In this document: positions 32,125 to 50,763 of the stretch, piece by piece | How the letters are laid out: every line of letters starts with the position of its first letter | Position numbering within the stretch: position 1 is the first letter of the stretch | NCBI GenBank assembly: GCA_030649895.1 | Contig: JAUSEX010000045.1 | Span: forward strand, 17,875 to 81,874 | DNA: 64,000 nucleotides | Source of the DNA: Candidatus Omnitrophota bacterium | GTDB taxonomy: Bacteria; Omnitrophota; Gorgyraeia; Gorgyraeales; Gorgyraeaceae | Direction: 5' to 3' | Made by a program: the position numbers and the translations under genes | The notes under the pieces: generated by a model | Seen by the model: only the letters and a program-made list of their open reading frames with translations | Databases searched by the model: none | What the model was told of the DNA's origin: nothing

Positions 32125-32224
32125 CTTCTCGACTCTGCTCCCTTGACTTACTCTCGTGACCGCTCGAAGAATAATAATGTTCGAGCGGACATTCTGGCTA
32201 TACATATAAGCCCAGTCGAGAACT
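32125..32224. repeat. Family A repeat element (full, near-consensus) between the DUF2344 gene and pilQ
   Basis: TTCTCGACTCTGCTCCCTTGACTTACTCGTGACCGCTCGAAGAATAATAATGTTCGAGCGGACATTCTGGCTATACATATAAGCCCAGTCGAGAAC. Confidence 0.9.
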
Positions 32225-33656
32225 ACTTTGTAATAGCTGCTAACTCAGGTTTAATCAAATTGACTGTTACAAAAAATAAAAGATCTGTTTTCTCTTTTGT
32301 CTTTTCAGTTTTCCTAAAAGGTATGCCAAACAAAGGTATATCCCCTAATAACGGAATCTTAGTAATCTTATCTACTTCTTTTTCGCTGATAAGGCCTCCT
32401 ATTACTATAGTCTGGCCATCTCTCAGCATTAATTGAGTTTCTGCTTTCCTGACAGCATAAACAGGCACCTGGACCTGCGCTGTAAGCTGGTCATATCGAA
32501 GCAGCGAGCTCAGCTCAGGTTTCAAAGAGAGCGTTATGGTCCCTTCCGAATTTATCTGCGGAGTAACTTTCAGTAAAATACCTAACTCCTTTTCTGTATA
32601 ACCCGTTATCTCCATAGTCCCCGTAGATGTATTTCTTTCGTATTTCGGTATATTTAAAGTCTGGCCTACTGTGATAAGCGCCTCTTGATTATTTAGAACT
32701 ACGATCTTTGGATTTGAAATTATTTTAGTACCCCCCCTGGAAGAAAGAACTTCCAATACTGCCTGAAATTGCGAGAAATCCAGGGTCCCGAATGTAAAAT
32801 TACTGACAGCCGCATATGGAAAACTCGGCGTGCCAGCGGAAGCCGTAGAAAAATCCGCTACTGATTGAGTTACGATTGCATTACCCTGAGAATCATAGTT
32901 AATCGTATCTTGCGGCGGTTTCGGTATGGGTATGTATTTATACCCCGTGCTCGCGGTAAGATTGCTTTTAAACGGCGTTGTCACTGGAATTTTTGCGCCT
33001 GAGGCGACAATCTTCGTCTGCCACTCAATACCAAGCTTGTCGGAATTGCCAAGCGTGGTCTCTATTATCTTTGCCTCTATCATAACCTGCTTTGTCTGCG
33101 CGTCAAGTTTCAGCACCACTTCTCTTATTTTGTAAATATTAGTAGCTATATCCGTCACTATCAATAGATTTGTCCTTTCGTCAAATTTTACTTTACCGCG
33201 GCTGGAGAGCATCTCTCCTATTGCCTGTGGCACGTTTTTAGCATTCGCATAATTAAGCGAAAAGACCTCTGTGACAAGCTCTTCGTTTTCCAGGTTTGCG
33301 GTAGTAGCTACGCGTATAATATTCCCTTCCCTCTCGTATACATAGCCATACGTTCTCAATATAATATCCAGCGCCTTTTCCCACGGCACATCAGTAAGCC
33401 GTATAGTTACAAGGCCTGTCACATCCTTTCCTACTACAATATTCATGCCGCTTTTGTAAGAGAGTATCCTCAGGACATTATTTATATCTGCGTCTTTAAA
33501 ATCCATTGTCACGTTGCCCGGAGCTGTTTCTGCCTCCTGACTGGCTCCTGTCTTAACAGGTTCTACGGCCTGATCTTCAACTGCCCCGTCGTCCTGGCCA
33601 AAAGAAGCGCATGTAAAAACCAAAAATAAACTAATAAAGATTACCCATGTTTTCAT
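32223..33656 (-). CDS. pilQ: Type IV pilus / T2SS outer-membrane secretin
   Basis: 477 aa with a signal peptide and a secretin C-domain (…GGLISEKEVDKITKIPLLGDIPLFGIPFR). Confidence 0.9.
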   Translation of the reverse strand: MKTWVIFISLFLVFTCASFGQDDGAVEDQAVEPVKTGASQEAETAPGNVTMDFKDADINNVLRILSYKSGMNIVVGKDVTGLVTIRLTDVPWEKALDIILRTYGYVYEREGNIIRVATTANLENEELVTEVFSLNYANAKNVPQAIGEMLSSRGKVKFDERTNLLIVTDIATNIYKIREVVLKLDAQTKQVMIEAKIIETTLGNSDKLGIEWQTKIVASGAKIPVTTPFKSNLTASTGYKYIPIPKPPQDTINYDSQGNAIVTQSVADFSTASAGTPSFPYAAVSNFTFGTLDFSQFQAVLEVLSSRGGTKIISNPKIVVLNNQEALITVGQTLNIPKYERNTSTGTMEITGYTEKELGILLKVTPQINSEGTITLSLKPELSSLLRYDQLTAQVQVPVYAVRKAETQLMLRDGQTIVIGGLISEKEVDKITKIPLLGDIPLFGIPFRKTEKTKEKTDLLFFVTVNLIKPELAAITK

Positions 33657-33679
33657 CTTATTCCTCCGTTAATTATTTC

Positions 33680-33743
33680 CGGTTCGCCTTGTTCGCTCGA
33701 AGCCCTTCCGGGTCCGACATTGTTCGGGCGCAGTCAAGAACTA
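33680..33743. repeat. Family A repeat, degenerate, between pilQ and pilP
   Basis: GTTCGCTCGAAGCCCTTCCGGGTCCGACATTGTTCGGGCGCAGTCAAGAACT. Confidence 0.6.
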
Positions 33744-34124
33744 TTCTTTATTAAGCTCTACTTTCACGCTTTCTCCGTTTACGTCAAAAATAACGCTATC
33801 CTTGTTTATCTTAAGAATCTTTATAGAACCCATAACATCCCCTTCTTTTGCTATTTCTCCGTTTATGATCGCTATGGATCCTTTGATATCGTCCCACACT
33901 ATGCCTTCCAGCCTTATATCCTCCGCTGCGCTTGCTTCGTATGCGTCAGATGCGTATCCGCCTGATTCTGAAATAAGAGGGGCAAACGGATCCCGCCTGC
34001 CTTTCGGATTGTACTTAAACGCGTCTTCTTCTGCGAACGCAGGCCTAAAATCGCAAACCGCCAAAACTAACAGAACTAATAATATCAATCTCCTGTAGAA
34101 ATATATAGAATTAATAAAGGACAT
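33741..34124 (-). CDS. pilP: Pilus assembly protein PilP-like
   Basis: 127 aa with a signal/lipobox-like N-terminus and the RDPFAPL motif. Confidence 0.7.
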   Translation of the reverse strand: MSFINSIYFYRRLILLVLLVLAVCDFRPAFAEEDAFKYNPKGRRDPFAPLISESGGYASDAYEASAAEDIRLEGIVWDDIKGSIAIINGEIAKEGDVMGSIKILKINKDSVIFDVNGESVKVELNKE

Positions 34125-34671
34125 ACGTGATTATCCTCATCTTTATATCATGATGGCGAGGGTCCTTAGCGAGCCCTGCCACATCCAGGCCTGTAATCCT
34201 TATAAATCTGTCCATGGTCTCTAATTTATTTATAAACGCTCCGAGCTGATGATAACCTGCCCTGGCCTCTATTAAAATCTGCAATTCGGCGTAAGAATTA
34301 TTCACGACCTTTTGCTTGGAAAGCAGGGTAGGCTCTTCCAGCGGCTTTATCCTAAGTATGCTAACCCCCGAAGACTCTGCGATATTTGAAAAATCCTCAA
34401 GAAGGCTTGAAATCTGGTCATGAGCCGGTAATCTTTTTTCAAGATAATCCGCCTTTTTCTCAAAATTCTCATGCTGGCTCATGACCGCGGCCTCATTGGC
34501 TATCAGCGCCTCTCCGCTCTTCACCTTTTCCTTAATCATTTTAAACTCTTTATTCCTTGCGATAAACTTTGAGAATTGCGGCCTTAAGAGAAGGTTATAA
34601 TAAAGCATAAGCCCAGCAATGCCAAATATCGCGACCAGTATATATATTTTTTGTTTTTCTTTAATATCCAT
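34111..34671 (-). CDS. pilO: Pilus assembly protein PilO
   Basis: 186 aa, N-terminal TM then coiled-coil, positioned within pilMNOPQ. Confidence 0.75.
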   Translation of the reverse strand: MDIKEKQKIYILVAIFGIAGLMLYYNLLLRPQFSKFIARNKEFKMIKEKVKSGEALIANEAAVMSQHENFEKKADYLEKRLPAHDQISSLLEDFSNIAESSGVSILRIKPLEEPTLLSKQKVVNNSYAELQILIEARAGYHQLGAFINKLETMDRFIRITGLDVAGLAKDPRHHDIKMRIITYVLY

Positions 34672-34691
34672 ACTTATGTCCTTCTTAATTT

Positions 34692-34758
34692 CACTAGAAG
34701 AATATTCAGTATTATTCGAGCGAGTCCCGGCATATGCCGGAACGAGTCGAGAACTACT
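34692..34758. repeat. Family A repeat element between pilO and pilN
   Basis: CTAGAAGAATATTCAGTATTATTCGAGCGAGTCCCGGCATATGCCGGAACGAGTCGAGAACT. Confidence 0.75.
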
Positions 34759-35335
34759 GGAAATAAAGGGCTATCTTGAACTCGACTATATCCCTTTCTT
34801 CTTTATTTCTTCTCTGCACGGATTCGAGTTTTATATTGCTGAAATCCTTAAAAAACACCTGGTCGTCTTTCAGATTTTTCATAAACTTTCCTACAAACGC
34901 CATAGCCTCTTCGCTCTTAGATACAACGCTGCCTTCTATTATCAGCCTATTTTCATTATCCGTATAAATATGCGTGAACCATATCCCTGGCAAGATCAGG
35001 TCCGAGAGCTGGTTTAACTTTTCAGTCCACAAAAATTTTCTTTTTGTAAGCTGATCCAGGGCTGTCATCTTGGATTTCAGCACAGCTATCTCTTTGTTCA
35101 CGGAATCTATATGGGAAATTTTTCCGGAAAAATTATTTTCTCTGGCCAATAACTTTTTTATTTGAGCGTCCATAATAAAAGACCCCAACGAAAGCGCTAT
35201 GATAATAAATATCAGAATTCCTATTGCGCCTCCGACTATAAGAAACTTGAGCTTTTCAGCTTCAATATTAAGATTAAAAGAAAGCTCTGTTTTTTTCTTC
35301 CTAAGCCCTTCAGGTAAAAGGTTAATTTCTATCAT
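34754..35335 (-). CDS. pilN: Pilus assembly protein PilN
   Basis: 193 aa; begins MIEINLLPEGLRKKK then a TM helix. Confidence 0.8.
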   Translation of the reverse strand: MIEINLLPEGLRKKKTELSFNLNIEAEKLKFLIVGGAIGILIFIIIALSLGSFIMDAQIKKLLARENNFSGKISHIDSVNKEIAVLKSKMTALDQLTKRKFLWTEKLNQLSDLILPGIWFTHIYTDNENRLIIEGSVVSKSEEAMAFVGKFMKNLKDDQVFFKDFSNIKLESVQRRNKEERDIVEFKIALYFQ

Positions 35336-35344
35336 AATTAATCT

Positions 35345-35363
35345 TCCCGTTCGTCGATCGGGA
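35345..35363. repeat. Family D short palindrome (TCCCGTTCGTCGATCGGGA) between pilM and pilN
   Basis: Related to the palindromes at 40670..40692 and 46676..46728. Confidence 0.5.
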
Positions 35364-35371
35364 CAGGTATT

Positions 35372-36355
35372 TTATTTCCTCAGCGCCAGGCCCATTGCCG
35401 CTGCGAACTGGCCAGGAAAATCTTTAAACTCTTTACAGCAAGATCCGTCAGAAATCTGAATTCCCTCGGATGGATCCCATAAAACAACCTCTATCCCAAG
35501 ATTCTCTTTTAAAAAATCCAGCATATTAAAAAGATAAGCCCCGCCGCCGCTCATGTAAAGCCTTTCTATGCTTTTGCCAAATTGCGTTTCAAAGTAATCA
35601 AAAGACATGCGTACCTCTGTTATAAATTTTTCCAGCGCCGACATCACAACACCGGACATTTCTATCTTTCTATCTCCGGGATTGCGCTTTAGATTCTCCG
35701 CATCATCAAGATTCAAGCCTAGTGATTCTTTGATCCTGCTGGTAATATCCGAACCTCCCCACAACAGGTCCCTTGTAAAATAGGGGTACGCGCCTACGGC
35801 TATGTTCATATTGGAAAATCTGGCGCCGATGTTTATCATTGCGTAAACATTTTCTTGCTTGGCCTGAAGTCCGACCCTTTGAAACGCATTTAATATCGCC
35901 ACGGTATCCACGTCTATATTGGCTATATCGAGCCCTGCATCTTTAAAAATCTCCATATAGCTATTCACCTTGTCCTTCTTGGCAGCCACAAGCAACACCC
36001 TGTTCGCATTACCCGAAGGGCCTTTATCCAGAATAGCGCAATCCAGTATTGCCTCATTGATGTCAAACGGTATATATTTGCCGCCTTCAAATTTTATAGC
36101 GCTCTTAAGCTCTTCTCTTTTCATAGGCGGCATTTCAATATAACGCACAATGACCGACGGTCCTGACAGAGAAATGTTTGCTCGTTTCGAGGATAGTTTT
36201 GAAAAAGCCAATAAATCCTTCAGGCTGGTTTTGACATCCTCGCCCGAAATAGCATTAATAGCGCATCTTGAAAGTTCCAGCTTGCCCCTTTTTTCCTGAA
36301 GCTCTATCAGCTTTATGCTGCTAGAGCCTATGTCAATTCCGGCCGGCCTTATCAT
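35372..36355 (-). CDS. pilM: Pilus assembly ATPase-like (actin fold) protein PilM
   Basis: MIRPAGIDIGSSSIKLIEL... Confidence 0.9.
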   Translation of the reverse strand: MIRPAGIDIGSSSIKLIELQEKRGKLELSRCAINAISGEDVKTSLKDLLAFSKLSSKRANISLSGPSVIVRYIEMPPMKREELKSAIKFEGGKYIPFDINEAILDCAILDKGPSGNANRVLLVAAKKDKVNSYMEIFKDAGLDIANIDVDTVAILNAFQRVGLQAKQENVYAMINIGARFSNMNIAVGAYPYFTRDLLWGGSDITSRIKESLGLNLDDAENLKRNPGDRKIEMSGVVMSALEKFITEVRMSFDYFETQFGKSIERLYMSGGGAYLFNMLDFLKENLGIEVVLWDPSEGIQISDGSCCKEFKDFPGQFAAAMGLALRK

Positions 36356-36516: not shown

Positions 36517-36960
36517 TTATTCCACCACAGGATCAGCTGCGCTTGCCTGTCCGCTGCTGTTTGCCCTGATGATCCCTGACTCATCCGCAAAAAAATGCCT
36601 AGTCCCAGTTTTACCGAAAAAAGTCGGATCGGCATTCAATATAAAGCTTTCCGTATCTATCAATACGTATGTAAAACTATAACCCTGTTTTGTCCCGCTT
36701 GCAAGAACGCTGTCAATATACGCAGGATTCGAGACCGGGGCTATAAGATCCGACAGGCCTGAAGGATAAGTATGCGGAAGGGTATTTGCGTAAAAATTCT
36801 GGCACGCGGTAACAATAGTCTTAAACGCGACTATAGCGGCTAATTCATTTGCGTTATGCCTTGCGCGCAATACATTCGAAACAACAAGCGTTGCAAGGGT
36901 CATAACTATCGCAACCACTATCATTATCTCAACTAGCGTAAATCCTCTTTTTGAGTTCAT
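36517..36960 (-). CDS. Type IV pilin / pseudopilin (prepilin-type N-terminal cleavage/methylation domain)
   Basis: MNSKRGFTLVEIMIVVAIVMTLATL is the class III signal peptide. Confidence 0.9.
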   Translation of the reverse strand: MNSKRGFTLVEIMIVVAIVMTLATLVVSNVLRARHNANELAAIVAFKTIVTACQNFYANTLPHTYPSGLSDLIAPVSNPAYIDSVLASGTKQGYSFTYVLIDTESFILNADPTFFGKTGTRHFFADESGIIRANSSGQASAADPVVE

Positions 36961-37123: not shown

Positions 37124-37573
37124 TTATTCTATCGGCGCTCCCGATACGTTAGTAAGCCTTATTACGCCACTCTCATCCACGAAGAAAACACGCGTACCTG
37201 TTGTACCGCTTACCGCAGGGCTTGCCGTGCAAGTAAACTGATTGGCGTTTACAAGCGCATATGTATAAAAATAACCCTGCTTTGCAGTTCCTGCTGCTGT
37301 AGCGCCCGCTAATCCACCGTCAATATACGCTGGCGTTGCCGAGCCCAAAGCTGCAAGGTTTGCCGGATAAGTCGTAGGTGTCTGAGCCGAACGGAAACTC
37401 TCGCAAGCCGTGCTGACTGTTCTCAAGGCCGCTATTGCCGCCGCCTCATTTGCGTTATGCCTTGCCCTCAATAAGTTCGGTATTGCTATTGCTGCTAATA
37501 GAGATATGATTGCGACGACTATCATTATTTCTACAAGCGTAAAACCACGTCCACTTCTTAATTTTAACAACAT
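37124..37573 (-). CDS. Type IV pilin (major pilin candidate)
   Basis: MLLKLRSGRGFTLVEIMIVVAIISLLAAIAIPNLLRAR. Own promoter, GGAGG RBS and a downstream terminator. Confidence 0.9.
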   Translation of the reverse strand: MLLKLRSGRGFTLVEIMIVVAIISLLAAIAIPNLLRARHNANEAAAIAALRTVSTACESFRSAQTPTTYPANLAALGSATPAYIDGGLAGATAAGTAKQGYFYTYALVNANQFTCTASPAVSGTTGTRVFFVDESGVIRLTNVSGAPIE

Positions 37574-37757: not shown

Positions 37758-38960
37758 TTAATGGGCTATGATTTCAGTAAGTTTGAAAACCGGCAGAAAC
37801 ATGGCAATAACTATGCCACCTATGACTATGCCCAGAAAGCCTATTATCAAAGGCTCTATAAGGCTGGTGAGGCCGCTTACGGCAGCATCTACCTGGTCTT
37901 CGTAAAAATCAGCTATCTTGGTAAGCATCTTTTCAAGCTTGCCTGTCTGCTCCCCTACCTTGATCATCCTGACAACCATCGGAGGAAAAGCCCCGCTCTT
38001 AGCCAACGGGTCAGCTATGTTTTCCCCCTCTTTTATTCCGGTGCGCACAGACTCCACTGCTTTTTCTATTACAGTGTTGCCTGCGGTTTTCCCGACTATT
38101 TCCAGCGAAACAAGTATAGGCACCCCGCTTTTGACAAGCGTGGCAAGCGTCCTTGTAAATTTTGCGACGGCGACCTTTCTGAAAAGAGGCCCAAGAATCG
38201 GCATATATAAAAGCATCTTGTCGAAATTTTCTCTTCCCTGCCTGGTCTTCATATATTTTTTTAACGCGAACACGGCTATCGCTACCCCTGATACCACATA
38301 TATAAACATTCCTCTTATAGTATCGCTTACAAAAATCAACACCCTCGTGGGAAACGGCAATTGTCCTCCCAGCATTGCAAATATCCCCTTAAAAGTCGGG
38401 ATGACTTTTAAAAGCATGACAAGCGTTATAAGCATTGCCATTGTTATTACAACAGTCGGATATACAAGGCTGGATTTCACTTTTCTCTGCAACATGCTTG
38501 CTTTTTCAAGATATGCGGCAAGCCTGTCAAGGATATCATCCAGCGCTCCGCTTGATTCTCCTGCCCTTACCATATTCACATAAAGCGTTGAAAATACCGC
38601 GGGGTGCCTTGCGAACGCATCAGAAAGGCTGGAACCTGTTTCTATATCGTCTTTTATTTTTGCAAGTATCGCTCTAAAGGCGGGCTTTTCTATCTGTTCG
38701 CATAAAATATCCAGGGCCTGGACCAGCGGTATGCCGCTGTCAACCATAGTCGCGAGCTGCCTGGAAAATATGACTATTTCTTCCAGCTTTACGCTGCCGC
38801 CCGGAGACGCCGGCCTTCTTTTCGCAACCTCTTCTATGGAAATTATTATAAGGTCTTTTTTGCGCAAGGCTTCTATCAGAAGCGCCTTGTCCGAATATTC
38901 CATGACCCCGCTTATTGTTTTCCCGTTAATCTCTTTTGCGGTATATTTAAATGTGGGCAT
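37758..38960 (-). CDS. pilC: Type IV pilus / T2SS inner-membrane platform protein (PilC/GspF)
   Basis: 400 aa with two T2SSF repeats. Confidence 0.9.
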   Translation of the reverse strand: MPTFKYTAKEINGKTISGVMEYSDKALLIEALRKKDLIIISIEEVAKRRPASPGGSVKLEEIVIFSRQLATMVDSGIPLVQALDILCEQIEKPAFRAILAKIKDDIETGSSLSDAFARHPAVFSTLYVNMVRAGESSGALDDILDRLAAYLEKASMLQRKVKSSLVYPTVVITMAMLITLVMLLKVIPTFKGIFAMLGGQLPFPTRVLIFVSDTIRGMFIYVVSGVAIAVFALKKYMKTRQGRENFDKMLLYMPILGPLFRKVAVAKFTRTLATLVKSGVPILVSLEIVGKTAGNTVIEKAVESVRTGIKEGENIADPLAKSGAFPPMVVRMIKVGEQTGKLEKMLTKIADFYEDQVDAAVSGLTSLIEPLIIGFLGIVIGGIVIAMFLPVFKLTEIIAH

Positions 38961-38970: not shown

Positions 38971-39036
38971 TTCTCGGTTCAGCTGTTTCGCGGCTTCGCT
39001 CAGAATAAATTCCGCGAGCCGAGAACTACTCCTCTG
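38971..39036. repeat. Family A repeat, degenerate, between pilC and pilB1
   Basis: TTCTCGGTTCAGCTGTTTCGCGGCTTCGCTCAGAATAAATTCCGCGAGCCGAGAACTAC. Confidence 0.55.
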
Positions 39037-40654
39037 CGGTCACGCGCACAACCTCTTCCATGCTGGTTACGCCATTTTTTTGTTTTTCCATACCATCGTC
39101 GTGCAACGTCTTCATGCCTTTTGAAACAGCGTAACTTCTTATATCGTCCACAGAAGCGCTTTCTATTATCATTTCCCTGATTTTATCGTCGATCGCCAAG
39201 GCCTCGAGTATCGCTATCCTTCCGAAATAACCCGTTGAGTTGCATTTTTTACATCCTTTGCCGCTGCAGGCCTTGCATATCACCCTGCATAGCCTCTGCG
39301 CAGCCACCATTACCACTGAGCTGGCTATTAAAAACGGCTCTATACCCATATCCATAAGCCTTGAAATAGCAGTAGGCGCGTCATTTGTATGAAGAGTGCT
39401 CAGCACCAATTGTCCTGTAAGCGACGCCTTTATCGCGATATCAGCGGTCTCGGAATCTCTTATCTCTCCTATCATGATCACGTCAGGGCTTTGCCTTAAT
39501 AACGAGCGCAAGCCGTTTGCGAAAGTCAAACCTATCTCCGCATTCGCCTGTATCTGCGTTATGCCCTCAACCTGGTATTCGACAGGGTCTTCTATGGTTA
39601 TAATATTTTTTTCAGGGGTATTCATCTGATTTATCACAGAATAAAGCGTGGTGGATTTTCCGCTGCCGGTCGGCCCTGTCACAAGTATCATGCCAAAAGG
39701 CTTTGCTATCGCCTCCTTAAATCTCGCAAGCGTATCGCTTGAAAAACCAAGCGTATCAAGGCCTATTGAAAGGTTTGATTTATCAAGCGCCCTCATCACC
39801 ACCTTGCCTCCAAAAGCGGTCGGCAGCATAGACACCCTGAAATCGACCTCTTTTTTCTGCATCCTTATTCTGAACCTTCCGTCCTGGGGCACCCTAGATT
39901 CTGTTATATTCATACCGGACATAATCTTTAATCTCGCTAACACGGCATTCTGATTCTTCTTCGGCACCCTCAGGACCTCTTGAAGATTTCCGTCAATCCT
40001 GTATCTCACGCGCATATAATCTTCTTCAGACTCAATATGTATATCAGAAGCCCTTTTTTTCAAAGCCTCCAGTATTATTAAGTTGACCATTTTTACAATA
40101 GGCGGGGTCCCGCCTTCCAGCGCAGCCTCCCCGATATCAAACTCTTCTTTCGCCATATCCAAGACTTCCAGATTAGCTTCTTCTGTATTCTTAATAGCGT
40201 CCGACAAAGACTTATTTCCCGTATCGTAAAATTTATCTATCGCGCTCAATATATCGGTTTCAGTACTCATCACAGGCTCTATGCTGAATTTTGTGAGCAT
40301 CTTCAGGTCATCTATTGCAAATATATTCAGCGGATCTGCCATAGCAACTATCAATGTATTGGAGAACCTGCATATGGCAATAACCTTGTACTGCCTCGCC
40401 ATTGCCTCATGTATAAGTTTGACGCTGTCTTTTTCCACTTTATATTTTGAAAGATTAATAGCTGGTATATTTAATTCCCTGCTCATCACTGACATCAGGT
40501 CTTTCTCGGCTATCATCCCCTCTTTAATAAGTATCTTGCCAAGGCTCCCGCCGTCTTTTGTCTGAATATTCCTGGCCCTCTCGAGATCTTTCTGCGCAAT
40601 AAGCTTGTTATCAACCAGCGCCTGTATCAATCTGTCTTTTAACGATTTAGCCAT
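39026..40654 (-). CDS. pilB: Type IV pilus assembly ATPase PilB / GspE family (paralog 1)
   Basis: 542 aa with an N-terminal MshEN-like domain, Walker A VTGPTGSGKSTTLYS and a compact tetracysteine CKAC..CKKC. Confidence 0.9.
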   Translation of the reverse strand: MAKSLKDRLIQALVDNKLIAQKDLERARNIQTKDGGSLGKILIKEGMIAEKDLMSVMSRELNIPAINLSKYKVEKDSVKLIHEAMARQYKVIAICRFSNTLIVAMADPLNIFAIDDLKMLTKFSIEPVMSTETDILSAIDKFYDTGNKSLSDAIKNTEEANLEVLDMAKEEFDIGEAALEGGTPPIVKMVNLIILEALKKRASDIHIESEEDYMRVRYRIDGNLQEVLRVPKKNQNAVLARLKIMSGMNITESRVPQDGRFRIRMQKKEVDFRVSMLPTAFGGKVVMRALDKSNLSIGLDTLGFSSDTLARFKEAIAKPFGMILVTGPTGSGKSTTLYSVINQMNTPEKNIITIEDPVEYQVEGITQIQANAEIGLTFANGLRSLLRQSPDVIMIGEIRDSETADIAIKASLTGQLVLSTLHTNDAPTAISRLMDMGIEPFLIASSVVMVAAQRLCRVICKACSGKGCKKCNSTGYFGRIAILEALAIDDKIREMIIESASVDDIRSYAVSKGMKTLHDDGMEKQKNGVTSMEEVVRVTAEE

Positions 40655-40669
40655 TTTGCTTTCTAAATG

Positions 40670-40692
40670 CCGTTCCCGATCGACGAACGGGA
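40670..40692. repeat. Family D short palindrome (CCGTTCCCGATCGACGAACGGG) between pilB2 and pilB1
   Basis: Shares the CCGATCGACGA core with 35345..35363 and 46676..46728. Confidence 0.5.
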
Positions 40693-40711
40693 AAAAGAGA
40701 TAAGTTTTTAA

Positions 40712-42469
40712 TTATTCATCCGCCACTGTTACGCGCAAAACCTCTTCGAGGCTCGTAAGGCCTTCTAAAACTTTTGCAATACCGTCTTCGCGCAATGTCC
40801 TCATGCCTTCGTCCCTGGCAATCTTTTTCAATTCATTTTCCCTGGCACGCTTTAAAACAAGATTTCTTATTGCAGGCGTAAGCGCAAGTACCTCGCATAT
40901 ACCTACCCTGCCTGCATATCCCGTATGTAGGCAAGCGCTGCATCCTTTCGCCCTGTAAAAGGATCCAACCTTTCCGACTCCGTGAGTCGCCGCATTCGCG
41001 CTGCGACCCGCGGAGCCGGAAAGGTTAATGCCAAGCCTTGAACTTAAAATATCGCTTGGTTTGTATTCCTCTCTGCATTTGGCGCATAATTTCCGGATAA
41101 GCCTTTGCGCGACTATTGCAATAAGGGATGATGTTATTAAAAAAGGTTCGCAGCCCATATTTATAAGCCGCACCACTGTACCAGGTGCGGTAGTCGTGTG
41201 AAGAGTGCTAAGTACAAGATGGCCTGTTAACGCGGACTTTATCGCTATATCCACTGTATCGAAATCCCTTATCTCTCCTATCATTATCACGTCAGGATCC
41301 TGCCTGAGAATCGACCTGAGCGCACTGGCAAATGTAAGGCCTGCCTCTGCCCTGGCTGTAACCTGATTAATACCCTCTATCTGGTATTCAATGGGATCCT
41401 CGACTGTTATAAGATTTTTTTCAGGGGAATAGACATGTCTCATTAGAGAATAAAGAGTAGTAGTTTTCCCGCTTCCCGTAGGGCCAGTGACAAGTATCAT
41501 GCCATGAGGCCTGGACGCGCATTTTTTTAATTTATCCAGGGAGTCCCCGCTGAAGCCCAGCTTATCAATATCAAGCATAGCCTGAGATTTATCCAGCACC
41601 CTCAATGCTACTTTTTCGCCTTTACTCGAGGGGAGAATGCTTACCCTGAAATCTACATTGTTATTATTTATTTTCAACCTGAACCTGCCGTCCTGCGGAA
41701 GGCGGCGTTCGGCAATGTTTAATTCAGACATGACCTTTATCCTGGAAACAATAGATTCATGCGTATTTTTCGGCAGGGATTCCGCTTCCTTTAATACGCC
41801 GTCTACCCTGTACCTGATGCGCACTGAATTTTCCATAGGCTCTACCAGGATATCGCTGGACCTGGCTTTTATCCCGTTTTCAAGTATCATATTTGTCAAC
41901 TTTACAACAGGCGCCTCTTCCACCAGCTTAAACAACCTCTCTGAATCTACTTTTTCTTCAGTCCCGCCTATCTGTATGAACTCTATGTCCTGCGTCTTCA
42001 TATCTTCCATTAATTCTTCTATGGCTTCATGGGTATTCTCTCCATAATACTGGTCTATTGCGTCCTGAACCTCTTTTTGAAAAGCTATAATAGTGCCTAT
42101 GTCAAGCTTGGTAATAGCCCTTATATCATCAATCGCAAAAATATTCAACGGATCCGACATTGCAATGGTAAGCATATTGCCAACCCTTGAGACAGGTATT
42201 ATCTGGTATTTATTCGCCACTTCGCGAGGGATAAGCTTTATGAGTTCCGGGTCTATTTTAAAACGCGCCAGGGATATAGGCGGGATACCGAGGCCCTGGC
42301 TCAAAACCGACATAAGGTCTTTTTCTGTTATAAAGCCTGCTTGTATGAGGATGCTTCTTAAAGAGCCGCCCTTTGCTTTCTGGATCTTCAACGCCTCGTC
42401 CAGCTGGGCTTTTGAAATAGTCTTATCGCTTATCAACAATTCTATCAGACGCTCTTTTAATGAATACAT
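40712..42469 (-). CDS. PilB / GspE family ATPase (paralog 2), with a family C repeat insertion in the zinc-finger loop
   Basis: 585 aa, Walker A VTGPTGSGKTTTLYS. CAKC...CSAC are spaced 45 aa apart against about 29 aa in typical PilB. The extra LSGSAGRSANAATHGVGKVGS is encoded by hairpin 40972..41021. Confidence 0.9.
   Translation of the reverse strand: MYSLKERLIELLISDKTISKAQLDEALKIQKAKGGSLRSILIQAGFITEKDLMSVLSQGLGIPPISLARFKIDPELIKLIPREVANKYQIIPVSRVGNMLTIAMSDPLNIFAIDDIRAITKLDIGTIIAFQKEVQDAIDQYYGENTHEAIEELMEDMKTQDIEFIQIGGTEEKVDSERLFKLVEEAPVVKLTNMILENGIKARSSDILVEPMENSVRIRYRVDGVLKEAESLPKNTHESIVSRIKVMSELNIAERRLPQDGRFRLKINNNNVDFRVSILPSSKGEKVALRVLDKSQAMLDIDKLGFSGDSLDKLKKCASRPHGMILVTGPTGSGKTTTLYSLMRHVYSPEKNLITVEDPIEYQIEGINQVTARAEAGLTFASALRSILRQDPDVIMIGEIRDFDTVDIAIKSALTGHLVLSTLHTTTAPGTVVRLINMGCEPFLITSSLIAIVAQRLIRKLCAKCREEYKPSDILSSRLGINLSGSAGRSANAATHGVGKVGSFYRAKGCSACLHTGYAGRVGICEVLALTPAIRNLVLKRARENELKKIARDEGMRTLREDGIAKVLEGLTSLEEVLRVTVADE
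40972..41021. repeat. Family C hairpin repeat inserted in-frame inside pilB2
   Basis: TTCCGACTCCGTGAGTCGCC-GCATTCGCGCT-GCGACCCGCGGAGCCGGAA; first arm identical to 885..904 except for 2 nt. Confidence 0.75.
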
Positions 42470-42480
42470 ATTATTTTCTT

Positions 42481-42545
42481 CTCTACCCCGCTTCCGTATC
42501 TCGCTCCCATGACCGCTAGAAGAACGCTGGTAGTCCAGTCAAAGA
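42481..42545. repeat. Family A repeat, degenerate half, between pilB2 and the MshEN gene
   Basis: ...CTCCCATGACCGCTAGAAGAACGCTGG... Confidence 0.5.
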
Positions 42546-42983
42546 TTATTTATAATATTTCTCTACCGCTTTTTTAATATCCGTAGCCGTGCTGACAAAA
42601 ATTTGCACGCACAAGCCTGATAATAGCGCGATGTCTTCCACTGCCTGGCTATTCAAAGGATTTGCCATTGCTATGGTAAGATTACTGCCTATCTTGTCCA
42701 CCGGAATCAAGCAATATTGTATCGCCACATTTTTAGGGACTATCTTGACTATCTCAGGATCTATTTCATAATTTTCGAGCGGCAGATAGGGAAAGCCGTA
42801 CTGGGCTGTTATAGCCTGCGCAATCGCTTCTTCAGTCACATAGCCTAAGTCAACAAGAACCTGGCCTATAAGGCCGCCCTTATCTTTCTGTATTTCCAGG
42901 GCATGCTGAAGCTGGGTCCTATTTATAAGCCCCAGGTCAGCCAAAAGTTCCCCCAATTGTTTTAAGTTTATACGATTAGCCAT
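42546..42983 (-). CDS. Stand-alone GspE-N / MshEN domain protein (putative c-di-GMP-binding T4P regulator)
   Basis: 145 aa. QLGELLADLGLINRTQLQHALEIQ fits the 24-residue MshEN c-di-GMP motif RLGxx(L/V/I)(L/V/I)xxG(L/V/I/F)(L/V/I)xxxxLxxxLxxQ. No ATPase domain. Confidence 0.7.
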   Translation of the reverse strand: MANRINLKQLGELLADLGLINRTQLQHALEIQKDKGGLIGQVLVDLGYVTEEAIAQAITAQYGFPYLPLENYEIDPEIVKIVPKNVAIQYCLIPVDKIGSNLTIAMANPLNSQAVEDIALLSGLCVQIFVSTATDIKKAVEKYYK

Positions 42984-42988
42984 ATCGC

Positions 42989-43083
42989 TTCTCGACTCGG
43001 TTGCTTCGCGTCCTCGCTCGAAGAATATTAATATTGCTCAAGCGGACACTGTTACTGCATTCGTAGTTCAGCCGAGAACCTCT
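42989..43083. repeat. Family A repeat element between the MshEN gene and pilT
   Basis: TTCTCGACTCGGTTGCTTCGCGTCCTCGCTCGAAGAATATTAATATTGCTCAAGCGGACACTGTTACTGCATTCGTAGTTCAGCCGAGAACC. Confidence 0.85.
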
Positions 43084-43085
43084 AT

Positions 43086-44153
43086 TTATTTACCCTTCAG
43101 CACCCTTTCTAAATCCTGCACTTCCGTAGTGCTGGCCAAAGCCTCTTCTTCCGATATAGCGCCTTTTTTGTATAAGTCGAAAAGCGCCTGGTTCATAGTC
43201 TGCATATTATCCTTCTGCCCTGTCTGGATCACGGAATATATCTGATGAATCTTTGATTCTCTTATCAGGCTTTTTACAGCGTGGTTTGAGATAAGCACCT
43301 CTACGGCAAGGACCCTGCCTTTACCGCCCTTCCGCAGCAATAGCTGCTGCGAAATAACGCCTGTCAATACAAAAGAAAGCTGTGTCCTGACCTGCGCCTG
43401 CTGCCTTGAAGGAAATACGTCTATAATGCGGTTGATCGTCTGCGCGCTGTCTGAAGTATGAAGCGTTGCAAAAACAAGATGCCCTGTTTCCGCGATCACA
43501 AGAGCCGCCTCTATTGTTTCCAGGTCCCTCATTTCTCCTATCAAAATAACATCAGGGTCTTCCCTGAGTATGTGCCTAAGGCCCTGGCCAAATGAGTGAG
43601 TGTCAGCCCCGACCTCTCTCTGGTTTATTATGGATTTTTTATTTAAATGCACGTATTCTATGGGATCCTCTATCGTGATTATATGACAATCTCTGTTTGT
43701 ATTTATATAATTTATCATTGAAGCGAGACTTGTAGATTTTCCGCTACCTGTGGCTCCAGTGACAAGCACAAGGCCTTTCTGGCGCTGGCAAAAATCCTGG
43801 ACTACCTTTACAGGAAGGCCGCATTCCTCAAAACTCATTATCTTAAAAGGAAGCGCCCTGATAGCGGCCCCCACAAATCCTCTTTGAAAAAACACATTCA
43901 CCCTGAACCTGCTTACGCCTTCTATGGTAAACGCGAAATCTAATTCCTTGTCCCGCTCAAAGCTGCTTTTCTGATCATTTGTAAGAATAGAATGTACCAG
44001 GGCCTTCACCGATGGACCGTCCAACGCCTCACCGTCCAGAGGCAAAAGGCTGCCGTCCATCCTCATATGCGGCATAGTCCCTGCGCTCAAATGCACATCC
44101 GAAGCCCCTTTTTGGACAGCGTCTTTTAGTAACTGACTCAAATCCTTTACCAT
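43086..44153 (-). CDS. pilT: Twitching-motility retraction ATPase PilT
   Basis: 355 aa; AIRALP, Walker A VTGATGSGKSTSL, GHLVFATLHT. Confidence 0.9.
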   Translation of the reverse strand: MVKDLSQLLKDAVQKGASDVHLSAGTMPHMRMDGSLLPLDGEALDGPSVKALVHSILTNDQKSSFERDKELDFAFTIEGVSRFRVNVFFQRGFVGAAIRALPFKIMSFEECGLPVKVVQDFCQRQKGLVLVTGATGSGKSTSLASMINYINTNRDCHIITIEDPIEYVHLNKKSIINQREVGADTHSFGQGLRHILREDPDVILIGEMRDLETIEAALVIAETGHLVFATLHTSDSAQTINRIIDVFPSRQQAQVRTQLSFVLTGVISQQLLLRKGGKGRVLAVEVLISNHAVKSLIRESKIHQIYSVIQTGQKDNMQTMNQALFDLYKKGAISEEEALASTTEVQDLERVLKGK

Positions 44154-44233
44154 GTAACCTCCTTAACATCTTGCCGACTCTGTTTATATTATGCGCTCAT
44201 AACTGTCCGAAAAATATTTTTGCCGGTTGAAAA

Positions 44234-45598
44234 CTATACAGCTACTCTGTTCTTGCCAAGAGCCTTGGCATTGCGCACAAGCCTCTCCGCCTTTTCCATC
44301 AGCTCTTCCGCCGTAGAGCCGTCTATCGGATTCTCTGAAACGCCGACGGAAACAGTCAATTTCTTATCAGCCCTGGCTAGCCTTCCAAGCCCGTCTTCTA
44401 TCTTTTTCCTAATCTCTTCCGCGACATGCGCGGCCTGCCTTTTATTTTTCTCAGGCAAAATTATCCCAAACTTATCGTCGCGCAGGCGCCCTACCCTGTC
44501 TATCTCCATAACAGAACTTTTTAAAATAGCGCCCGCCTCCTTTAAAAGCGCCTCCGCCTTTCCCTGGCCATTGGCCGCGGAAAAATCTTTAAAATTATCC
44601 ATATCCACCAGGAGGTACCCGCACGGCCTCTGATACAAAAGCGCTCTTTTTATTTCCTCGTCCAGCCTGGGCTTCATATAACTGTAATTATACAGGGACG
44701 TCATTTCGTCTTTTGTAGTAAGCTCTTTTGATTTCTTTATAAGCATGTCGTTTTCAACAGCTATTGAAATCTGCTTGGCAAACACCTTCAGGAGTTCTTT
44801 TTCATCATCCGCAAAAATAAAATCTTTTTCATTGTTTCCAACCACAAGCATCCCGCATAATTTCCCAACGACTGTTACTGGGATGCTGACAATATTTTTC
44901 AGACCGAACCTATTCATCAAACAATCATGAGATACTTCAGATTGCTTTACCTTCTCCCCCAGCGCCTTTCCTTCTTCAAGATTACAGCTGGACGCTAAGC
45001 TATATTCATTTGCGCCATCTTCCGCAAGCAGCAAAACCGAAACTGAATTATACTCCACATCCGACACCTTCTGCGTTATAAAATCCAGGGTATTCTTTAA
45101 TTCTTTCGAAGAGGAAATGACATTTCCTATTTGCAAAAGCCCGGAAAGCGCAATGACCTTTTTATTTATCTCTATATTTATCAGCTTTGTCTTTTCCCCG
45201 TACGTCTTCAGCTCCTCCATGTTGTCTTTTATCTTCTGCGTCATGATATTCAGGGATTTGCTCAGATCTCCTACTTCATCTTCCCGGTTGATATCTATAA
45301 TATTTATCGCGCCGCCTTCGGCTATTATCTTCGCGTCCCCGGCCATTTTTATAACGGGGTCTATCATCTCTTTTGTAATATAAAGCCCTAGCATGGATAT
45401 TATTATGCATATAACCAATATAAAACTTATATTGGACAAGCTAAGCCCGAAAAATAAATTTATATTAGGAAAGATATACGTTATAACAATCCAGGCGCAT
45501 ACCATTATAGGGATAAGCGACATCAGGGAAAAACCTATCATTGTTTTGTATCTCAGGCCTTTGGGAACCATCGAAATATCTTTTGCTAGCTTTAACAT
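44234..45598 (-). CDS. Membrane HAMP-GAF protein with a degenerate GGDEF domain (RLRDDKF in place of GGDEF; predicted non-catalytic)
   Basis: 454 aa with two TM helices, HAMP, GAF and a C-terminal GGDEF fold whose signature reads VGRLRDDKFGIILPE. Confidence 0.75.
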   Translation of the reverse strand: MLKLAKDISMVPKGLRYKTMIGFSLMSLIPIMVCAWIVITYIFPNINLFFGLSLSNISFILVICIIISMLGLYITKEMIDPVIKMAGDAKIIAEGGAINIIDINREDEVGDLSKSLNIMTQKIKDNMEELKTYGEKTKLINIEINKKVIALSGLLQIGNVISSSKELKNTLDFITQKVSDVEYNSVSVLLLAEDGANEYSLASSCNLEEGKALGEKVKQSEVSHDCLMNRFGLKNIVSIPVTVVGKLCGMLVVGNNEKDFIFADDEKELLKVFAKQISIAVENDMLIKKSKELTTKDEMTSLYNYSYMKPRLDEEIKRALLYQRPCGYLLVDMDNFKDFSAANGQGKAEALLKEAGAILKSSVMEIDRVGRLRDDKFGIILPEKNKRQAAHVAEEIRKKIEDGLGRLARADKKLTVSVGVSENPIDGSTAEELMEKAERLVRNAKALGKNRVAV

Positions 45599-47327: not shown

Positions 47328-47343
47328 CTATTCTTTCCCAAAG

Positions 47344-50104: not shown

Positions 50105-50135
50105 AATAATGCAGGAGACGGTTTAAAACCGCTCT

Positions 50136-50543: not shown

Positions 50544-50557
50544 TATTGCCTTTTAAC

Positions 50558-50747
50558 TTCTCGACTCGGCCCGCATAACAGGTCCTCATGACCGCTCGAA
50601 GAATATTAGTGTTCGAGCGGACATATTGGCTATGCGCGCAAACCCGGCCGAGAACTCGTATGTATTTTTAATATTACTTTACCGCTAGAAAAATATTAGT
50701 GTTCGAGCGGACATGTTGGCTATGCGCGTAAACCCAGTCGAGAACTC
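50558..50747. repeat. Family A repeat with a ~95-bp second half tandemly duplicated (two direct copies, ~6 mismatches)
   Basis: ...CTCATGACCGCTCGAAGAATATTAGTGTTCGAGCGGACATATTGGCTATGCGCGCAAACCCGGCCGAGAACTCGTATGTATTTTTAATATTAC..., repeated from 50690 onward. Confidence 0.85.
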
Positions 50748-50763
50748 GTATGTATTTTTAATA

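Follow-up and report, generated by a model that had tools for sequence, protein, structure and literature searches.

We propose that a 145-residue protein encoded in a type IV pilus gene cluster of an uncultured Omnitrophota bacterium is a detached, trans-acting MshEN subunit of the PilB1/PilB2 type IVa extension motor and likely its c-di-GMP receptor, a reading to which we assign a probability of about 55%. The separate MshEN gene beside two pilus ATPases is a real and widespread arrangement. What is new is that the c-di-GMP motif is retained only in the free-standing small protein, and not in the two ATPases.

The window (the whole analysed stretch of 64,000 nucleotides) carries the cluster on its minus strand, in the order TM-HAMP-GAF-degenerate GGDEF gene, pilT, MshEN-only gene, PilB1, PilB2, pilC, two pilin genes, and pilMNOPQ; all coordinates below refer to this strand. 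The positions that the initial annotation gave for the first five genes (39026-45598) are correct. Consecutive genes among the five are separated by 57-102 bp, and no terminator-like site is found on the coding strand in any of these gaps. PilT, the retraction ATPase (355 aa; 43086..44153), scores 489 bits against TIGR01420 (cut-off 319). Among 80 species loci, pilT is positioned by the MshEN gene only in the window's clade (L001-L031) and in L078. The PilC platform protein (37758..38960) matches Pfam T2SSF at 1.9e-70, with a Myxococcus-type PilC model as its top NCBIfam match. The two pilin genes (37124-37573 and 36517-36960) encode prepilin N-terminal GFTLVE motifs and match TIGR02532 and the PilA_Myxo model; the top promoter-like site of the minus strand is located by them, at 37662-37634. 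In the pilM-to-pilQ block (32223..36355), pilM (35372-36355) and the secretin gene pilQ (32223-33656) score above the cut-offs of TIGR01175 and TIGR02515, respectively, and PilQ also matches Pfam Secretin. The pilN-like (34754-35335), pilO-like (34111-34671), and pilP-like (33741-34124) genes, for which profile searches find no family match, are assigned by position and size alone.

The small gene (42546..42983) encodes MshEN as its sole domain (Pfam PF05157, 6.9e-18; NCBIfam NF053729 'c-di-GMP_motif', 60.3 bits, cut-off 38), in agreement with the initial annotation. Its 2960 database homologs are far above chance expectation; the best 120 are almost all exactly 145 aa long and 62-94% identical, and species-representative genomes yield 263 stretches with relatives. 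In 80 Omnitrophota species loci, the same place in the cluster is taken by an ortholog of 144-170 aa (219 aa in one ORF call). The small protein's median ortholog identity, 67%, is the highest in the pilus cluster, compared with 59% for PilC, 58% for PilB2, 57% for PilB1, and 41% for the GGDEF protein. Near-invariant positions number 48 of 145; the N-terminal 145 residues have 23 in PilB1 and 11 in PilB2. The MshEN gene is thus strongly constrained and genomically locked to PilB1/PilB2.

The ORF is homologous to PilB N-termini, and one 'short' database relative (L086) is a PilB truncated at a contig end, so we considered that it might be the N-terminal part left of a third PilB after frameshift or decay, a caveat already raised in the initial annotation, or else an assembly artefact. 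Both are rejected as having almost no chance of being correct. The MshEN stop codon is only 76 bp from the start of a complete PilB1, the gene is 102 bp from pilT, and neither gap contains ATPase-like sequence in any frame. Moreover, the ORF is present in 80/80 loci, its top homologs are almost all 145 aa long, and its conservation exceeds that of every other protein in the cluster; a frameshift is thereby excluded.

Residues 9-61 of the small protein (42801..42959) form tandem 24-residue c-di-GMP motifs, QLGELLADLGLINRTQLQHALEIQ-KDKGG-LIGQVLVDLGYVTEEAIAQAITAQ, with a spacer of exactly 5 residues. In an alignment of 81 sequences, G3 is invariant in both motifs, and Q24 is present in 78 (motif I) and 81 (motif II). 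Position 2 is L in 80/81 (motif I) and I in 75/81 (motif II), position 17 is L and I, respectively, in 81/81 each, and position 21 is L in 80 (motif I) and L63/I18 in motif II. Position 1 is Q68/P7/K4/R2 in motif I and L in 80 in motif II; in the window's protein, Q9 and L38 replace the motif Arg residues. The good match to the published motif claimed initially therefore holds for the Leu, Gly, and Gln positions, kept in 78-81 of the 81 sequences, but not for Arg. In PilF GSPII-B, Leu occupies position 1 of motif II (L196) and c-di-GMP is bound with a Kd of 6 nM, the K167L variant binds at 2 nM, and the consensus has been widened to (R/K/L)LG (PMC11731258). Leu at this position is compatible with nanomolar binding in GSPII-B. 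The motif I Gln is outside both this extended consensus and Wang's relaxed set [RKPN]. Experiments have shown Gly3 and Gln24 to be the critical positions (PMC12002112; PMC5013675), and XpsE G11V/G40L abolishes c-di-GMP binding. In the literature searched, no binding data were found for any stand-alone MshEN protein.

PilB1 (585 aa; 40712..42469) and PilB2 (542 aa; 39026..40654) each comprise MshEN and T2SSE domains and are 45% identical. Their top profile is type IV-A PilB TIGR02538, at 639 and 617 bits, below the equivalog cut-off of 675.65, followed by GspE. The annotated tandem-PilB pilus cluster is of type IVa. The nearest solved structures are Geobacter and Myxococcus PilB (PDB 5TSG, 5ZFR, 3JC8; 552-564 bits). 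Every catalytic box and the tetracysteine motif are intact in PilB1; PilB2 has a fixed His-to-Gln change in the His box. The PilB1-then-PilB2 order and orthology are consistent in 51/51 loci. The MshEN motif regions of both are degenerate. In PilB1 (residues 7-59; 42293..42451; 69 orthologs), the G3 column is T48/I13 in motif I and S40/K23/R5 in motif II, where the Q24 column is G64. In PilB2 (residues 8-60; 40475..40633; 53 orthologs), the G3 column is I29/S12 in motif I and R25/G15/S6 in motif II, where the Q24 column is Q19/E15/T8. Conservation of both Gly3 and Gln24 in both motifs, at 96-100%, is thus confined to the small protein. The Gly3 replacements are the same type of change as XpsE G11V/G40L. 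Because the ATPases' own MshEN domains have lost Gly3 almost everywhere, the small protein looks like the cluster's sole candidate c-di-GMP sensor, rather than one of three equivalent domains.

The AF2 model of the small protein (pLDDT 88.8) adopts the MshEN fold and superimposes on c-di-GMP-bound MshE (PDB 5HTL) with a TM-score of 0.77-0.80. By structure and by domain-level sequence alike, the small protein matches PilF GSPII-A best (TM 0.86, 34% identity), a domain that fails to bind c-di-GMP. Like GSPII-A, the small protein has Asn at the position of MshE D108 and PilF D266 (an invariant NPLN), and it shares with that domain most of the hydrophobic residues between the subdomains (I5, L10, I58, Y62, and L110). 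Restoring the perfect consensus in GSPII-A did not confer binding while the inter-subdomain contacts remained. The small protein lacks the N-cap motif by which GSPII-A is kept from binding: R4 and L7 replace T and D, and modelled helix 1 begins at K8.

The gene at the upstream end encodes a membrane TM-HAMP-GAF-degenerate GGDEF protein (454 aa; 44234..45598) with two N-terminal hydrophobic segments, GGDEF (Pfam, 1.1e-30) and GAF (3e-07) domains, and a weak Pfam HAMP match (20.1 bits, under the 25-bit cut-off). The signature is R373-D-D-K-F377 (44468..44482) instead of GG[DE]EF, and the I-site equivalent is M364-E-I-D367 (44498-44509) instead of RxxD. An ortholog is located directly upstream of the (pilT-)MshEN genes in 67/80 species loci. 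None of the 67 has a GG[DE]EF signature; distant clades have GDDEF, GDNEF, or DDDEF, and the window's clade has RDDKF-like sequences. None has the I-site Arg, and all have lost the substrate Asn, which we take to be the PleD N335 equivalent. All share a family-specific invariant S-E-N-P-x-D-G motif. The protein is predicted to be a non-catalytic partner or sensor. Since the I-site Arg and substrate Asn are lost, sensing of c-di-GMP by a known mechanism is unlikely; the earlier proposal of a sensor or effector rather than a cyclase thus stands as regards catalysis and is weakened as regards c-di-GMP sensing by known routes.

No active cyclase or phosphodiesterase is encoded in the window. In relatives, however, genes for c-di-GMP enzymes lie in or beside the module, which strengthens the c-di-GMP connection initially suggested. 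In 29 loci, the orthologous cluster includes a REC-HD-GYP gene with intact HD and HHExxDGxGYP motifs, either between PilB2 and pilC or directly 3' of the MshEN gene; the window's own clade lacks it. In L091, an intact TM-HAMP-GGDEF cyclase (RRYD I-site, RYGGDEF, DIDNFKELNDKYGH) takes the position orthologous to the window's degenerate GGDEF protein and overlaps the MshEN gene; the MshEN gene itself overlaps the gene of a PilB whose motifs are degenerate. An AGDEF protein is encoded upstream in L088, and in L083 and L089 no GGDEF domain adjoins the module. Elsewhere in Omnitrophota genomes, GGDEF domains and PilZ homologs have been reported (bioRxiv 10.1101/2023.11.21.568195). Two lineages, L088 and L093/L094, have a PilB1 ortholog that lacks the MshEN domain; it is 53-58% identical to residues 181-585 of the window's PilB1, and its reading frame starts within the MshEN gene, with an overlap of 20-23 nt. 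This arrangement suggests a Rosetta-stone-type link of the small protein to the motor.

We infer the following mechanism, including the c-di-GMP binding, the ATPase complex, and the direction of control. The fused copies in PilB1 and PilB2 have lost the guanine-contacting glycines, and the separately encoded copy has retained them. The small protein would bind one c-di-GMP via its two xLG...Q motifs. The ligand-bound protein would then join the motor, at PilB1, a PilB1/PilB2 hexamer, or the PilM/PilC dock; gene order alone suggests a physical interaction with PilB1/PilB2. This association would gate pilus extension versus PilT-driven retraction. The upstream protein, with its catalytically dead GGDEF, would be a conserved partner in signalling or scaffolding that evolved from a dedicated diguanylate cyclase.

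Several observations count against a receptor: the motif I Gln, the likeness to GSPII-A, the lack of an active cyclase or phosphodiesterase in the window, the loci without an adjoining GGDEF domain (L083 and L089), and, in the window's clade, the thoroughly degenerate partner GGDEF and the missing HD-GYP gene. A ligand-independent structural subunit or adaptor, which would dock PilB1/PilB2 in trans to PilM/PilC or the GGDEF-family protein, with the motif conserved for the bundle, is a possible but less probable explanation. In the bundle, many motif residues (Leu/Ile) also serve as hydrophobic core (PMC5013675), the non-binding GSPII-A is the nearest structure, with Asn108 and inter-subdomain residues in common, and the partner GGDEF is dead in 67/67 orthologs. 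In addition, protein docking is a known role of the MshEN-type N domains in PilB and GspE, and the fold matches of the small protein include the PilB-PilZ complexes 7LKM/7LKO and GspE-GspL 4PHT. The MshEN-less PilB1 relatives are equally compatible with a purely structural split. However, PilB1, PilB2, GSPII-A, and XpsE fold without Gly3/Gln24, indicating that these residues are dispensable for the fold, yet they are kept in the small protein only. The absence of the blocking N-cap and the HD-GYP and intact or near-intact GGDEF genes adjoining the module in relatives also argue for a ligand.

The same fold and 31-36% identity to the N domains of PilB1/PilB2 would allow a decoy or brake that competes for their docking site, with or without c-di-GMP, and inhibits extension or favours PilT; this corresponds to the competitor suggested in the initial annotation. 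The gene is located between pilT and pilB1 in the window's clade, and small inhibitors of PilB-associated regulators are known, such as PlzR acting via PilZ, according to PMC11461919. We nevertheless consider competition improbable. In L088 and L093, PilB1 has no N domain to compete with, and the gene overlap argues for stoichiometric co-production as a subunit; extreme conservation, above the motor's own, would be more usual in a core subunit than in a modulator, and the cluster lacks pilT in most lineages. A detached regulatory subunit seems to describe the small protein better than a mere competitor does.

The N domain of Vibrio cholerae MshE (PDB 5HTL), the prototype c-di-GMP receptor of pilus ATPases, has the same two-subdomain fold in 145 residues. 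Both have tandem 24-residue motifs with a 5-residue spacer, keep Gly3/Leu/Gln, and are associated with a pilus extension ATPase. In MshE, however, the domain is fused to the ATPase, whereas the putative Omnitrophota receptor is a separate polypeptide; identity is just 25%, with Arg9 to Gln, Arg38 to Leu, and Asp108 to Asn differences. The top PDB sequence match is Thermus thermophilus PilF GSPII-A/-B/-C (PDB 9G1W, 8PDK, 6EJF/6F8L; 1.1e-51 over three repeats). PilF likewise has several MshEN/GSPII modules on the motor, only some of which bind c-di-GMP. The small protein shares its motif II Leu with the high-affinity GSPII-B, and its overall shape and NPL(D/N) loop with GSPII-A, but not the GSPII-A N-cap. 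PilF carries its three modules in cis on one ATPase; here they are in three polypeptides, and only the free module keeps the motif. Canonical type IVa PilB (Geobacter, Myxococcus) has the same domain order and catalytic boxes as PilB1/PilB2, but it is a single gene whose N domain has RLG...Q / R[LI]G...Q, in contrast to two conserved paralogs with degenerate motifs. In canonical PilB, MshE, and PilF alike, the ATPase chain itself includes the nucleotide-binding four-helix bundle.

The proposed logic resembles that of FimX-PilZ-PilB in Xanthomonas and Pseudomonas, in which a degenerate-GGDEF multidomain protein and a small adaptor on the MshEN-like N domain of PilB control extension. The regulatory parts are non-homologous, with no EAL and no PilZ in the Omnitrophota cluster; the adaptor here is itself an MshEN domain, and the GGDEF protein is a membrane-bound TM-HAMP-GAF protein. 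Inactive GGDEF receptors and scaffolds (PelD, FimX GGDEF, and CsrD-type) likewise maintain a GGDEF fold under purifying selection without GG[DE]EF. PelD-type receptors have kept an RxxD I-site, to which c-di-GMP binds, whereas the I-site Arg is missing in 67/67 Omnitrophota orthologs, which have the invariant S-E-N-P-x-D-G motif instead.

On the basis of open reading frames and Pfam/NCBIfam matches, five consecutive genes on the minus strand occupy window 39026-45598, in agreement with the layout proposed in the initial annotation. The first (44234-45598) encodes a 454-residue GGDEF protein with two N-terminal hydrophobic segments, a HAMP domain (weak match), a GAF domain, and a GGDEF domain. 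It is followed by the genes for the PilT retraction ATPase (43086-44153; TIGR01420, 489.4 bits against a cut-off of 319.1), a 145-residue protein whose sole domain is MshEN (42546-42983; PF05157, 6.9e-18; hereafter small MshEN), and two full-length MshEN-T2SSE ATPases, PilB1 (585 residues, 40712-42469) and PilB2 (542 residues, 39026-40654). Beyond PilB2 lie pilC, two pilin genes, pilM, pilN/O/P-like genes, and the pilQ secretin gene. PilM and PilQ score above the NCBIfam cut-offs and the pilins carry prepilin leaders, while PilN, PilO, and PilP are assigned by position only. With pilC, the pilins, and pilM-Q continuing the cluster, the type IVa set (PilB, PilT, PilC, PilM-N-O-P, PilQ, and pilins) is present in one locus, which is therefore a complete type IVa pilus locus. 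The gaps from the GGDEF gene through pilT, small MshEN, PilB1, and PilB2 to pilC are 57-102 bp, and a promoter/terminator scan finds no terminator-like site on the coding strand within them. The same scan finds a strong promoter-like site upstream of the first pilin gene and no other informative internal signal. In the 64-kb window, phmmer finds no other GGDEF or MshEN domain, and Pfam scans of the other large open reading frames return nothing relevant to c-di-GMP.

The flanks of the pilus cluster (window 30287-31777 and 45690-52784) hold mreBCD-PBP2-rodA and a TIGR03960 radical SAM gene (601.9 bits against a cut-off of 462.3) on one side and RNase G, obg, proB, and proA on the other. TIGR03960 genes commonly adjoin RNase E/G genes, so the pilus genes may be an insertion into that housekeeping block. 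The MshEN-PilB module stays linked to mre/rod genes even in relatives of no more than 39-53% identity (the more distant loci L083, L089, and L091). Elsewhere, window 12459-19473 encodes a TonB-like protein, a TonB-dependent receptor, a FecCD/ABC/periplasmic-binding transporter, and a CobO corrinoid adenosyltransferase; it looks like a cobalamin uptake block, possibly connected with the B12-binding radical SAM gene that precedes the pilus cluster. A 1050-residue protein with three Laminin_G_3 (concanavalin-like lectin) repeats and a neighbouring DUF1573/Ig-like protein (window 60720-63872 and 58995-59819) may be surface adhesins.

Database searches return 2960 homologs of small MshEN; nearly all of the top 120 have exactly 145 residues and are 62-94% identical to it, and those among the 120 with a named source belong to metagenome-assembled genomes of Omnitrophota. 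A scan of one genome per species yields 263 related stretches, and the best 80 (L001-L080) are nearly all labelled Omnitrophota, with some labelled Planctomycetia or 'uncultured bacterium'. Open reading frames were called in these 80 loci and classified against the proteins of the window. The order mreBCD-PBP2-rodA-TIGR03960 radical SAM-GGDEF-family protein-(pilT)-small MshEN-PilB1-PilB2-pilC recurs wherever the contig extends far enough. The small MshEN reading frame spans 144-170 residues across the 80 loci, apart from a single 219-residue call. In the window, its stop codon is followed by 76 bp and the start of a complete PilB1, and ATPase-like sequence is absent from the other frames nearby. 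The intergenic distances, the empty frames, and the constant size of the orthologs in 80 species exclude the possibility, raised in the initial annotation, that the protein is a fragment of a frameshifted third ATPase. A pseudogene is likewise excluded. Small MshEN is the best-conserved protein of the pilus cluster: its median identity to the window is 67%, compared with 57% for PilB1, 58% for PilB2, 59% for PilC, and 41% for the GGDEF protein (RodA, 50%). Near-invariant positions number 48 of 145 in small MshEN, 23 in the first 145 residues of PilB1, and 11 in those of PilB2. One metagenome-assembled genome, SO_2017_LW3_121, contributes two loci (L049 and L080) on separate contigs, each with an mre-rSAM-GGDEF-MshEN-PilB1 block; either the locus is duplicated or the bin combines two strains.

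A c-di-GMP-binding MshEN domain is recognized by a pair of 24-residue motifs with a 5-residue spacer between them; the test positions are Leu2, Gly3, Gly10, Leu17, Leu21, and Gln24. According to Wang et al., the backbone amides of Gly3 and the following residue bind the guanine O6/N7, Gln24 contacts the ribose-phosphate, and the bases lie stacked against the Leu residues under a cap formed by Arg1. In small MshEN, the motifs comprise residues 9-32 and 38-61, with the spacer KDKGG. Gly3 is present in 81/81 sequences in each motif, Leu or Ile occupies positions 2, 17, and 21 in at least 80 of the 81, and Gln24 is kept in 78/81 (motif I) and 81/81 (motif II). Position 1 is Gln9 in motif I (Gln in 68/81; the remainder P, K, or R) and Leu38 in motif II (Leu in 80/81). 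By these counts, the good motif match first reported holds at the Leu, Gly, and Gln positions and fails at the two arginines, both of which are absent. The stacking residue at position 1 is Arg in MshE, and the consensus has been extended to (R/K/L)LG; Thermus PilF GSPII-B, with Lys and Leu at position 1, binds with a Kd of 6 nM, and its K167L variant with 2 nM (PMC11731258). Leu38 falls within the extended consensus, and Gln9 lies outside every published position-1 set. Because a Lys/Leu domain binds at nanomolar Kd and the consensus has been extended, the missing arginines would, by analogy, not be disqualifying for the predicted c-di-GMP binding.

The N domains of the two ATPases do not keep the full set of Gly3 and Gln24 residues that small MshEN has in both motifs. 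In the window, PilB1 has I9 and R38 at the Gly3 positions and G59 at a Gln24 position, and PilB2 has I10 at a Gly3 position and E60 at a Gln24 position. Almost everywhere among the PilB1 orthologs, Gly3 is replaced by T/I (motif I) and S/K/R (motif II) and the second Gln24 by Gly; almost everywhere among the PilB2 orthologs, Gly3 is replaced by I/S and then mostly by R/S, and the second Gln24 position varies between Q, E, and T. Equivalent substitutions in XpsE (G11V and G40L; PMC5013675) and in PilF GSPII-A (A41; PMC12002112) leave c-di-GMP binding abolished or much weaker. The NF053729 'c-di-GMP_motif' model (cut-off 38 bits) is passed by small MshEN with 60.3 bits and still by PilB1 (47.5 bits) and PilB2 (39.6 bits), indicating that it scores general bundle similarity. 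Hence, judged by the critical residues, only the free-standing domain is a plausible c-di-GMP site within the cluster.

PilB1 and PilB2 are 45% identical. Type IV-A PilB (TIGR02538) is the best family for both, ahead of GspE, with scores of 638.9 and 616.7 bits, respectively, below the cut-off of 675.65; the closest solved structures for both are Geobacter and Myxococcus PilB. On these scores and structural relatives, neither is likely to be of the MshE or GspE type. Their orthology and the order PilB1-PilB2 are consistent in 51/51 loci, indicating that the duplication predates the divergence of the sampled lineages. In PilB1, the Walker A, Asp box, Walker B, His box, and tetracysteine motifs are all intact. 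The catalytic boxes of PilB2 are intact as well, but its His box (window 39386-39421, residues 412-423) reads TGQLVLSTLHT, with TGQ for TGH in 53/53 orthologs; the first His is kept in 69/69 PilB1 sequences. Two further changes are fixed in PilB2, Walker A GKS for GKT and RQSPD for RQDPD, and together these substitutions suggest altered catalysis or a specialised partner role. The zinc-binding tetracysteine loop of PilB2 (window 39242-39277, residues 460-471) is collapsed to CKAC-SGKG-CKKC, about 43 residues fewer than in PilB1. As distant PilB2 orthologs have about 570 residues, this deletion is specific to the clade of the window (L001-L031). Genuine PilB1-PilB2 fusions would have argued for a hetero-oligomer. 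Two candidate fusion reading frames of about 1170 residues (L037:7321-10842 and L038:8586-12098) are artefacts of masked N runs translated as X. A heteromeric PilB1/PilB2 motor would be an attractive idea.

An active cyclase carries GG[DE]EF (rarely A/SGDEF), the substrate-binding Asn in FKxxND, and an I-site RxxD five residues upstream of the signature. In the GGDEF protein of the window, the signature is RDDKF and the I-site position reads MEID. None of 67 orthologs has GG[DE]EF, the signature being GDDEF, GDNEF, or DDDEF in distant clades and RDDKF-like in the clade of the window; none of the 67 has the I-site Arg, the position reading [ST][ED][IV]D. The substrate-binding Asn is lost (S/H/R/Y), and only DxDxFK is kept. 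With signature, I-site Arg, and substrate Asn all gone, the earlier view of a degenerate GGDEF protein that is unlikely to be a cyclase is borne out. No protein with a canonical GG[DE]EF is found in the 80 flanking loci. Despite its degeneracy, the GGDEF domain is the best-conserved part of the protein, and it contains a family motif, S-E-N-P-x-D-G (window 44318-44338, residues 421-427), whose E, N, P, D, and G are present in 66-67 of 67 orthologs and which could be a partner or ligand site. The ortholog in L083 is TM-HAMP-GAF, without a GGDEF domain. Other distant relatives carry less altered proteins: an AGDEF protein lies upstream of the MshEN module in L088, and in L091 (L091:6090-9147; NCBI GCA_029263055.1) an intact TM-HAMP-GGDEF protein with the canonical I-site RRYD, RYGGDEF, and DIDNFKELNDKYGH is encoded between rodA and MshEN. 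There, the GGDEF stop overlaps the start of a 148-residue MshEN gene, whose own stop overlaps a single PilB with degenerate motifs; pilC, a PAS histidine kinase, a sigma-54 activator, and pilins follow. The likeliest reading is that a former dedicated cyclase, as still seen in L091, has turned into a non-catalytic sensor or scaffold.

A second type of c-di-GMP gene occurs in relatives. In 29 loci of a distant Omnitrophota clade (L032-L080) whose cluster lacks pilT, a gene for a REC-like-HD-GYP protein of about 356 residues (L068:11956-13026, L040:12077-13147, L036:8570-9640, L076:8454-9524, and 25 further loci) matches Pfam HD_5 at about 1e-32, with intact HDxGK and HHExxDGxGYP motifs. It sits between PilB2 and pilC, or directly after small MshEN in L036 and L076. 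Neither the window nor its clade has this gene; their cluster contains pilT instead. GGDEF domains and PilZ genes are reported elsewhere in Omnitrophota genomes (bioRxiv 10.1101/2023.11.21.568195), so c-di-GMP is plausibly present in the phylum.

Free-standing MshEN proteins extend further. A search of 1.84 billion cluster representatives gives 22,669 matches; among the best 150 (50%-identity representatives), 49 are at most 215 residues long, an upper bound on stand-alone proteins as some are contig-end fragments (e.g. L086), and most carry xLG...Q / LxG...Q. L083 and L087 repeat the arrangement pilT-MshEN-PilB with degenerate PilB motifs, and in several diverged lineages no cluster member other than the MshEN-only protein retains the residues that contact the ligand. 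In the L089/L090 lineage, whose locus contains neither the radical SAM nor the GGDEF gene, a second MshEN-only gene (L089:11034-11486; 150 residues, LLG.../YIG...Q) is found between PilB2 and pilC, besides the copy upstream of PilB1. In L088:6001-9324 and L093:2622-6137 / L094, the PilB1 ortholog has only 395-406 residues and no MshEN domain, and is 53-58% identical to residues 181-585 of PilB1 in the window. Its start overlaps the 3' end of the small MshEN gene by 20-23 nt. The PilB2 ortholog of L088 likewise lacks the four-helix bundle. As the domains are fused in most organisms and separate and translationally coupled here, a Rosetta-stone-type argument suggests that small MshEN acts with the PilB1/PilB2 motor.

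We therefore favour, at a probability of about 0.55, the reading that small MshEN is a detached regulatory subunit of the PilB1/PilB2 motor, probably its c-di-GMP receptor, with the GGDEF protein as a conserved non-catalytic partner. The predicted structure bears on the ligand. An AlphaFold2 model (28 sequences, pLDDT 88.8) has helices 8-16, 22-35, 39-46, and 51-62 forming a four-helix bundle, followed by an alpha/beta subdomain, which is the two-subdomain MshEN fold. The closest Foldseek matches are PilF GSPII-A (9G1W, TM 0.86), c-di-GMP-bound MshE (5HTL, 0.77-0.80), and PilF GSPII-B (about 0.7). The resemblance to GSPII-A cuts both ways, because GSPII-A does not bind c-di-GMP, for three reasons: its motifs deviate, an ideal N-cap lets helix 1 reach into the pocket, and hydrophobic contacts hold its subdomains tightly together (PMC12002112). 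Small MshEN has none of these motif deviations and lacks the N-cap, having R4 and L7 where T5 and D8 are needed, and its modelled helix starts at K8. However, like GSPII-A, it has Asn in the NPL loop, where MshE has D108 and GSPII-B D266, and it keeps most of the hydrophobic-interface residues (I5, L10, I58, Y62, and L110). These GSPII-A-like features argue against c-di-GMP binding, and the HD-GYP and GGDEF neighbours in relatives are suggestive of it. The main rival reading, less likely than the favoured one, is a docking subunit that works independently of any ligand; it would accommodate the GSPII-A-like features, and those neighbours speak against it. The initial annotation had proposed a c-di-GMP-controlled pilus with the free domain as adaptor or competitor for the ATPases; this interpretation is partly supported and sharpened by the present analysis, and a pure competitor, conceivable beside two ATPases with MshEN domains of their own, is less likely in view of the translationally coupled loci.

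More speculative, and on balance unlikely, is an extension of the regulatory-subunit reading to a three-protein extension motor, in which PilB1 and PilB2 would form an obligate hetero-hexamer and c-di-GMP sensing would have moved to a detachable MshEN. PilB2 would then be a catalytically altered partner, given the fixed His-to-Gln change of its His box, and what was ancestrally a dedicated cyclase would, after decay, tether the module as a membrane scaffold or sensor. Such an arrangement would hold for the Omnitrophota type IVa pilus and related lineages and, if true, would be without precedent both as a trans-acting MshEN receptor and as a heteromeric PilB motor.

Among c-di-GMP receptor domains, only two or three are widespread; MshEN belongs to them and, to our knowledge, has been examined solely in forms that are joined to ATPases or glycosyltransferases. 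The present locus suggests that free-standing MshEN proteins form a large class, tied to a conserved PilB pair. If binding is confirmed, second-messenger control of a pilus motor would be deliverable by a dissociable subunit, and a 145-residue soluble protein would offer a simple in vitro handle on pilus regulation in Omnitrophota; these bacteria are uncultured, and their type IVa pili are believed to be key to living attached to a host or as predators (PMC10066038). Should binding fail, the family would be a clear natural example of motif conservation not predicting c-di-GMP binding. Type IVa pili across Omnitrophota have been described, but not these genes (Seymour et al. 2023), and our literature search turned up nothing published on free-standing MshEN proteins or on c-di-GMP in the pili of Omnitrophota. 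New with respect to the literature searched is the combination of an extremely conserved free-standing MshEN with a conserved pair of PilB ATPases that have lost the motif. In canonical PilB of Geobacter and Myxococcus, the N domain retains RLG / R[LI]G, whereas those of PilB1 and PilB2 in the window do not.
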